64,000 bases of DNA from Candidatus Vogelbacteria bacterium (GCA_021414225.1 JAIOOX010000002.1:342958-406957); one strand, 5' to 3'. Shown: positions 38,245-38,445, counted from the stretch's first letter. Notes: generated by a model from the letters alone, not told the origin. Made by a program: numbers and translations.

Positions 38245-38445
38245 GAAAAATCTGGGGTAAAAAAATAGATCGGTCCAGTAAGCAAGCTTACCGTCCGATC
38301 CTATTCGCAACACCCCGATAAAAAGGGTGGGGAGAAGAGCAGATAGGGAGTCCTTTCCTTCCCTGGCCTCCAGGCGCACGGAGGGAGCGCGCCTGGAGGC
38401 TTTGGGAGGGAGGGTAAGACGCCCGGGGGTCTACCTTAGAGTATT
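38245..38445 (-). ncRNA. GC-rich structured ncRNA candidate (about 190 nt) ending in a strong terminator; identity unresolved (6S/SRP-like?)
   Basis: About 60% GC island in an AT-rich intergenic region; 12-bp perfect GC hairpin (gcctccaggcgc/gcgcctggaggc); palindromic hairpin 38268-38300 followed by UAUUUUUUU on the minus strand. Confidence 0.4.

Follow-up and report, generated by a model that had tools for sequence, protein, structure and literature searches.

Introduction

Among described bacterial small RNAs, those that come closest to the element reported here are RsaE/RoxS of the Bacillota and sX13 of Xanthomonas. These C-rich RNAs, which pair with their targets independently of a chaperone, are of a similar size class and, like our element, have a promoter of their own and more than one hairpin, end in an intrinsic terminator, and carry motifs rich in C and U on the transcribed strand (CCCUCCC, UCCCUCC and CUCCC). 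However, no homology of sequence or structure links them to our locus, where the best-conserved C-rich motif is predicted to be paired instead of being displayed in a loop, the motif that does lie in a loop is not conserved among homologs, and the host genome makes little use of Shine-Dalgarno (SD) sequences.

Other systems also offer points of comparison. In E. coli, rncO is the autoregulatory leader of the rnc operon, on which RNase III acts. Like rncO, the RNA described below is a multi-hairpin molecule with a long duplex that lies upstream of an rnc-containing operon; in our case, however, rnc is set apart from the RNA by two genes as well as by a terminator and a separate promoter, and no homology was found. 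Leaderless mRNAs, in turn, have been described in Actinomycetota and Deinococcota, and they reportedly occur in M. tuberculosis (Cortes et al. 2013).

The genomes of CPR/Patescibacteria are tiny and, to our knowledge, generally lack Hfq. In the searchable literature, we found nothing on small RNAs of this group, nor any statement on leaderless genes in CPR. Here we present a computational analysis of a stretch of DNA of 64,000 nucleotides (henceforth, the window) from one such genome. An earlier reading of the window, referred to below as the original prediction, had proposed that a GC-rich noncoding RNA bounded by a terminator lies between rnhB and rpmF, and that the rpmF mRNA is leaderless.

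Results

Gene order and composition of the rnhB-rpmF spacer

The host is a CPR/Patescibacteria bacterium. Database labels of the same or related L32 proteins are Vogelbacteria, Yonathbacteria, Paceibacterota or Parcubacteria; for RnhB, one relative bears the label Saccharibacteria. On the minus strand, the gene order is a tRNA (39189-39111), rnhB (39051-38461; RNase HII, 196 aa, PF01351), a 252-nt spacer, rpmF (38208-37984; ribosomal protein L32, 74 aa, PF01783), a nusB-NUDIX fusion (37919-37005) and rnc (36985-36290), which is found two genes downstream of the small RNA. The fusion gene is worth a separate mention: its product is a NusB protein with a C-terminal NUDIX hydrolase domain (304 aa; PF01029 + PF00293), it is kept in every relative examined, and its position is constant, with rpmF on one side and rnc on the other.

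The GC content is 0.419 for the whole window, 0.552 at 38245-38445, 0.575 at 38259-38439 and 0.617 at 38300-38440; among 181-nt windows of the stretch, 38259-38439 ranks in the top 0.6%. The value of about 60% GC that had been given for this segment is thus accurate for the core (38300-38440) and slightly generous for the full 200 nt. Further GC maxima (181-nt windows, up to 0.62) are found at about 200-600, about 5400 and about 10400; they overlap predicted ORFs, and an Rfam scan detected no RNA genes in them.

Folding of the entire spacer is far better than that of shuffled sequences on either strand (z -4.6 for the minus strand, -5.3 for the plus strand). Both hairpins of the original prediction are present. 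The perfect 12-bp GC hairpin has arms GCCTCCAGGCGC at 38366-38377 and 38389-38400, which reach 14 bp if one G-U pair is accepted and which are found only once in the window. The 33-nt hairpin, GAUCGGACGGUAAGCUUGCUUACUGGACCGAUC, is located at 38300-38268 on the minus strand (-17.2 kcal/mol, z -6.4 versus shuffles) and is followed by UAUUUUUUU at 38267-38259. On the minus strand, the layout of the spacer is therefore that of a structured, GC-rich sequence of about 175 nt, with a promoter ahead of it and a terminator behind, after which come a second promoter and the ATG.

Predicted anatomy of the small RNA

The predicted small RNA, of about 175 nt, extends from 38434 to 38259 on the minus strand. 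Its 5' end was put at about 38434 ± 3 from a distance of 6-8 nt between the -10 box and the start, and the 3' end falls within the U-run. Its promoter (38440-38468, minus) is made of TTGACT (38468-38463), a 17-nt spacer with a TG extension and AATACT (38445-38440). This near-consensus sigma-70-type promoter, whose -35 box overlaps the rnhB stop codon TAG (38463-38461), escaped the original prediction, and it is stronger than the proximal promoter that precedes rpmF. TTGACT-N17-AATACT is identical in loci L084, L172 and, as far as it could be read, L169; counterparts are TTGACT-N17-TAGTAT in L171, TTGACA-N16-TATTAT in L170 and TTGACA-N17-TATACT in L182. The L088 contig begins inside the promoter, and only the -10 region is visible there.

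Five helices, named P1 to P5 from the 5' end, are proposed on the minus strand. P1 (38413-38435; GGUAGAC/GUC(U)UACC) is a tentative 5'-terminal hairpin, with an energy no better than that of shuffles; each homolog has a 5' hairpin of its own, these hairpins align poorly, and 64.5% of the cells are paired in the alignment described below. The 5' strand of P2 (38404-38409) lies within the tract CCCUCCC(UCCC), and its 3' strand (38357-38363) within the purine tract GGGAAGG(AAAGGA), which holds the string GGAAGGAA. CCCUCCC is invariant in 5/5 lineages and is predicted to be mostly paired (probability of being unpaired, 0.13-0.32). In L088 the partner strand is changed to GGAGAGGAGGA, and CCCUCCC is still unaltered. 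P3 (38366-38400) is the GC-rich hairpin of 14 bp mentioned above, and is topped by the apical loop UCCCUCC; across five lineages, the apical loops vary (UCCCUCC, UCCAUUCUCCG, UUCG, UAG, AUCUCC). Together, P2 and P3 have a folding energy of -43.7 kcal/mol (z -6.2).

A pyrimidine-rich linker of about 25 nt (AAAGGACUCCCUAUCUGCUCUUCUCCC, 38330-38356), which is a candidate interaction region, follows P2. Its sequence is moderately conserved, and its predicted probability of being unpaired is 0.39 in the window, whereas four homologs give values of 0.65-0.85. P4 (38311-38329) is a hairpin of the type CACCC-loop-GGGUG, in which CAC...GUG is conserved and the inner pairs covary. Finally, P5 (38259-38300) is the intrinsic terminator, formed by the hairpin at 38300-38268 and the UAUUUUUUU tract; a U-run after P5 is present in all homologs. 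The minimum free energy structure of the window RNA is a different one, a long 'rod' in which the 5' end is joined to the linker. This fold was discarded, as L084, L169 and L171 do not share it and form a local hairpin at the 5' end instead.

Homologs, covariation and strand

Homologs of the spacer were found by exact look-up of L32 and its cluster members, and also through RnhB relatives; the RnhB scan of genome contigs gave, among the matches listed, mostly Clostridia, and provided one useful locus. Five loci (L081-083, L086 and L174) belong to the same species and have a spacer 97.6% identical to that of the window. The L088 spacer is about 72% identical, those of L084/L085, L169 and L172 are more diverged and still alignable, and L175 contains a 3' fragment alone.

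The five-helix structure was written for the window RNA, and a covariance model, R1, was made from the window and L081. MAFFT combined with RNAalifold misplaced P4 and P5 in the homologs, and a model-guided alignment (A7; L081, L088, L169, L172 and L084) was therefore used instead; a second covariance model, R2, was built from it. On the window, the match at 38439-38259 scores 236 bits with R1 and 178 bits with R2. R2 recovers exactly the homolog lineages (L081-type, L088, L169, L172 and L084), with scores of 112-178 bits. Neither the viral contigs and other CPR loci nor the 80 L32 loci from metagenomes contained a credible match to it. The sole weak match, L162, is actually the end of a coding region followed by a terminator. 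In L171, where RnhB is 60% identical, the RNA can be aligned end to end with its five helices and scores 13.4 bits only; this locus probably harbors a distant member of the family. According to the R2 scans, the family is restricted to a narrow group of CPR/Patescibacteria.

The possibility that the element is a repeat or a mobile element was also considered and rejected: neither the hairpin arm nor CCCTCCC is repeated in the window beyond chance, no match was found in 50,697 phage records, and ten pattern matches in IMG/VR were all rejected by the covariance model.

In A7, which is limited to five lineages, was fitted to the model and carries a structure derived from one of its own sequences, 91.3% of the cells are in standard pairs and 15/45 pairs are changed on both sides. 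When the 3' partners were slid by 1-3 columns, pairing fell to 33-50% with 0-2 double-changed pairs, and none of 500 column shuffles attained the observed values. Compensatory changes occur in P3, where five pairs show them and 98% of the cells are paired (for instance, CCUCCAGG/CCUGGAGG versus CCCCGGG/CCCGGGG), in the inner pairs of P4 (CACCC/GGGUG, CACCUC/GAGGUG, CACUCUAC/GUAGAGUG and CACCUUCC/GGAA-GGUG) and in the P5 terminator, with six covarying pairs. P2 (CCCUCC/GGGAAGG) is constant across A7; because it never varies, covariation neither backs nor contradicts it.

The minus-strand structure includes G-U pairs, such as G52-U62 in P3, that would be A-C if the plus strand were read. These pairs, together with the promoter and the U-run, indicate that the RNA strand is the minus strand. 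Open frames do occur, because the region is GC-rich, and among homologs neither the frame nor the start nor the stop is conserved. A decayed protein gene was likewise rejected: tblastn of the Nudix ORF found in locus L001 against the spacer gave nothing meaningful, and frames are not kept.

Promoter, helices, terminator, strand, conservation and the lack of a conserved ORF are direct outcomes of the computation. The proposal of a terminator-bounded noncoding RNA between rnhB and rpmF is hence upheld by a conserved promoter, covarying helices and a terminator, and can be assigned to the minus strand. We consider it likely that 38434-38259 (minus) is a real, independent small RNA gene, with predicted promoter, ends and terminator, and the sequence data indicate that it represents a previously undescribed, lineage-restricted small RNA family of an ordinary kind.

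How such an RNA would act admits more than one explanation. Our preferred one, presented in the Discussion, is that of a riboregulator acting in trans. A different and rather unlikely explanation is that the RNA binds a protein or is a processing substrate, with the invariant P2/P3 duplex (CCCUCCC...GUCCCCGGG/CCCGGGGAC...GGGAAGG, about 20-22 bp) as the recognition site; candidates are RNase III, whose gene rnc is two genes downstream, a ribosomal protein, or a GGA binder of the CsrA kind. P2 and the base of P3 are indeed conserved in sequence beyond the needs of pairing, the purine strand holds 2-3 GGA motifs in each lineage, P2 and P3, when stacked, reach a length sufficient for RNase III, and genes of RNA metabolism (rnhB, nusB-NUDIX and rnc) are nearby. 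However, the GGA motifs are predicted to be paired, unlike those of CsrA sponges, and a terminator, a promoter and two genes stand between the RNA and rnc.

The spacer as a variable slot

The region between rnhB and rpmF differs widely among relatives. The slot is empty in L093, L176 and L178. In L093, rnhB is directly followed by the proximal rpmF promoter, which is near-identical to that of the window; in L176 and L178, rpmF comes straight after rnhB, with a single promoter. A Nudix-like ORF of 172-181 aa occupies the slot in L001 and L089, and an 87-aa ORF with no family assigned is found in L177. In L170, L182 and L179, the slot contains other CU-rich RNAs that run from promoter to terminator and are not recognised by R2; the RNA of L170 has two hairpins, whose C-rich loops read CCUCCCCCCCU and CCCCCCUCCUCUUU. 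Since the relatives with a short spacer keep the proximal rpmF promoter, which also resembles those of far more distant loci (L096, L105, L113 and L123), the unit made of promoter, RNA and terminator looks like an insertion into an ancestral arrangement of rnhB, promoter and rpmF, and not like an rpmF leader.

These observations bear on the idea that the element acts in cis, either as a structured module at the 3' end of rnhB (3' UTR and terminator) by which the leaderless rpmF promoter would be insulated, or as a leader of the attenuator type, with control over the transcription that reads through into rpmF-nusB-rnc. Its location would fit: the RNA is directly upstream of rpmF in every lineage possessing it, the terminator is placed 20 nt ahead of the rpmF -35 box, and a terminator and a leaderless promoter also precede rnhB. 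In addition, 38418-38409 is complementary, at 9 of 10 positions, to the 5' half of the terminator, in the window only. We nevertheless regard a cis-acting element as improbable. The putative antiterminator pairing had to be rejected, as inspection of the sequences indicates that it is not kept in L088 or L084; a strong dedicated promoter is conserved at the 5' end of the RNA; translation would be poor from an mRNA whose ATG is embedded and lacks an SD; and a simple insulator requires a terminator alone, not sequence-conserved P2-P4. The leader or attenuator version in particular is not supported, as the terminator and the ATG have a conserved promoter between them, the proximal promoter is ancestral and exists without the RNA in L093, and rpmF directly follows rnhB in L176 and L178.

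Still less credence is given to the view that the element is a functionless GC-rich remnant in a variable spacer, its hairpins having been kept by chance or shared descent. The slot is certainly variable, with empty versions, the Nudix and 87-aa ORFs and the unrelated-looking RNAs of L170, L179 and L182; the family is narrow, and with five related sequences only, apparent covariation can be inflated. Yet compensatory changes are found in three helices at about 30-40% divergence and the slid controls collapse, promoter and terminator are conserved, and the element does not resemble the Nudix ORF.

Comparison with known RNA families

With Rfam 15 at gathering thresholds, three tRNAs and nothing else were found in the whole 64 kb. 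At E<=10, a search of 38100-38600 (501 nt) gave just look-alikes driven by GC-rich hairpins: the viral frameshift element htlv_FSE, miRNA precursors and sX13. The best of them, sX13 (RF02232), is non-significant, reaching 22 bits where the gathering score is 50, with an E value of 0.05 in the 501-nt search; no match to RsaE was obtained in this segment. Seven homologous or syntenic loci yielded tRNAs only, and ARAGORN detected no tmRNA in 37500-39500 nor in the whole window. The lack of a covariance-model hit, which the original prediction had named, along with the lack of a discrete transcript, as a ground for refutation, is not a valid one for a new family.

It does affect a different claim, namely, that the segment bears short similarities to RNase P RNA and to SRP RNA. 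As no Rfam match exists in the window or in the homologs, these resemblances must be viewed as chance strings. For RNase P RNA (RF00010/RF00011), a length of 300-400 nt with a P4 pseudoknot core would be expected, and the element has about 175 nt between its promoter and its terminator. The likeness to 4.5S SRP RNA (RF00169) consists in an irregular hairpin, rich in GC and about 100 nt long, that includes a GGAAGGAA string; however, there is no covariance-model match, no conserved helix 8 with its GNRA-capped apex and internal loops, and the string (on the minus strand) belongs to the 3' strand of a stem and is variable, being replaced by GGAGAGGAGGA in L088. Of the further candidates listed for a covariance-model search, 6S RNA (RF00013) gave no match, and its rod with paired ends and a large central bubble is at odds with five local helices and a 3' end formed by a local terminator hairpin; as for tmRNA, neither ARAGORN nor Rfam finds one, with its tRNA-like domain and tag frame. 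That the element is one of the universal housekeeping RNAs (SRP 4.5S, 6S, RNase P or tmRNA) in divergent form is therefore effectively refuted, despite a size and GC-richness within the 4.5S/6S range and the presence of the GGAAGGAA string: Rfam gives no match to these RNAs, even at E<=10 in the 501-nt search, nor any in the homologs, the apical loop is variable and not GNRA (UCCCUCC, UUCG, UAG, AUCUCC), the ends are unpaired, no central bubble exists, and the close relatives L093, L176 and L178 are devoid of the RNA, unlike what is expected for a universal RNA gene.

The rpmF promoter and putative leaderless starts

The promoter that had been predicted for rpmF was confirmed: TTGCCT (38244-38239), a 17-nt spacer and TATATT (38221-38216) are found at 38216-38244 on the minus strand, 7 nt (TACACCC) separate it from the rpmF ATG at 38208, and there is no SD. 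The proximal promoter up to the ATG (TTGCCTTTTTTAGATAAATAAGTTATATTTACACCC-ATG) is the best-conserved part of the spacer, and is near-identical in all close relatives.

To place this arrangement in a wider frame, 80 metagenomic L32 loci (L089-L168) from an L32 scan were compared, 75 of which are distinct. A TTGnnn-N16-19-TAnnnT promoter that ends 6-10 nt before the ATG is found in 59/75 distinct CPR L32 loci; at random positions, the same pattern occurs in 29/1600 cases. An SD-like motif is found at 1/75 loci. With a promoter abutting the ATG, no SD and an arrangement kept in most of these loci, rpmF is very probably leaderless, as had been proposed. The likeness to the leaderless mRNAs of Actinomycetota and Deinococcota lies in a -10 box 6-10 nt before the start, the lack of an SD, and the occurrence of the arrangement in many relatives and commonly among window genes; it differs in that the rpmF case is deduced from sequence only, and in that the host is a CPR bacterium.

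Within the window, 13/58 genes have a -10 box (at least 5/6 positions) located 5-10 nt before the start, compared with 3-4% in controls. These genes, which include rnhB and dnaE, often have a TG-extended box and lack an SD; examples are the starts at 39051, 39287, 12002, 19610, 49002, 53836, 54565, 57120 and 63130. In nusB-NUDIX, a weaker box (CATTAT) lies 6 nt upstream of the ATG. SD-like motifs are found at 8/58 starts (14%), against a background of 9%, and are thus not enriched. As 13/58 window genes behave alike, leaderlessness seems to be a habit of the genome and not a peculiarity of rpmF, which suggests that leaderless initiation may be a major mode in this lineage.

An unusual tRNA upstream of rnhB

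In the gap between the tRNA gene and rnhB, a terminator-like hairpin (39072-39099, minus) is directly followed by a TG-extended TATACT box, which is 6 nt away from the rnhB ATG; the layout, a terminator and then a leaderless promoter, is the same as before rpmF.

The tRNA itself (39111-39189, minus) has an abnormal anticodon loop of 8 nt (UUUAGCAA) on a CUAAC/GUUGG stem. The extra base is placed there both by ARAGORN, which reports 'tRNA-???' (Leu|Ala), and by the Rfam tRNA alignment, and the score is 51 bits, compared with about 69 for other tRNAs of the window. In four contigs of the same species, with flanks about 97% identical, the same slot has a tRNA-Pro(CGG) of normal length, and in L084 and L169 it has a tRNA-Pro(UGG). 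About 17/77 positions differ between the window tRNA and the sister-strain copy; several of the changes are compensatory, and the cloverleaf is kept. The window tRNA could have been replaced or neofunctionalised, with a loop reminiscent of frameshift suppressors, or it could be a redundant, drifting copy. The tRNA-Pro(CGG) of the sister strains (L081 2022-2098, and also L082, L083 and L174) is peculiar as well: its loop is UGCGGGA, with G at position 33 (alignment A8), a position at which U is near-universal in tRNAs. Considering the 8-nt loop of the window and the G33 of the sister strains, this tRNA slot looks fast-evolving.

Discussion

The mode of action that we favor for the small RNA can be outlined as follows. 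Transcription would start at the near-consensus sigma-70-type promoter placed over the rnhB stop codon, and the RNA would fold into the 5' hairpin P1, P2 (CCCUCCC/GGGAAGG) beneath P3, a single-stranded linker, P4 and the P5 terminator. The latter might, in addition, keep read-through transcription away from the leaderless rpmF promoter, which lies 20 nt further on. The RNA would then accumulate as a discrete transcript and act in trans as a riboregulator, most likely by pairing with G/A-rich mRNA segments through the linker, or through CCCUCCC once P2 opens.

That the riboregulator works without a chaperone, by pairing in trans with purine-rich segments of mRNAs in the manner of RsaE/RoxS and sX13, is a tentative reading, suggested by analogy. 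For the full explanation, in which a structured small RNA gene is combined with base pairing in trans, the balance is even, a compromise between the strength of its two parts.

Part of the data agrees with pairing. CU-type tetramers outnumber GA-type tetramers on the transcribed strand of the window RNA (23 versus 4), as well as in L170 (18 versus 0) and L182 (23 versus 4); in L084, L088 and L171, tetramer counts reveal no such bias. The accessible linker and the constancy of CCCUCCC in L088 are also in line with it. On the other side, CCCUCCC is predicted to be mostly paired, which is unusual for a seed, the linker sequence is moderately conserved, and SD-like motifs are not enriched at the gene starts of the window. 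A scan for duplexes between three pyrimidine segments and the translation-initiation regions of all 58 window genes likewise gave no more than random segments did; near the 1% tail, G-rich sites were found at an RNase R/II-like gene (29880) and at ORFs at 295 and 32329.

CCCUCCC also contains the anti-SD core CCUCC, and this fact invites a more daring speculation, to which we attach little probability. The genome is a reduced one, with many predicted leaderless starts and almost no use of SD sequences. CCCUCCC and GGGAAGG might form a switchable duplex, acting as a mimic of the anti-SD and the SD that masks the few SD-led mRNAs or titrates the 3' end of 16S rRNA and so shifts the ratio of leadered to leaderless translation. 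The slot would then be a cradle where riboregulators of this kind arise repeatedly (the window clade, L170, L171, L179 and L182).

Three consequences can be drawn from this analysis. One is that a false lead is removed: the element is not a cryptic gene for SRP RNA, RNase P RNA or 6S RNA. Another concerns leaderless starts, which matter for gene calling and for the annotation of start sites in CPR metagenome-assembled genomes. Lastly, a small RNA that runs from promoter to terminator and is backed by covariation gives surveys of metatranscriptomes, and work on the few CPR systems that can be cultivated, a definite candidate to search for.
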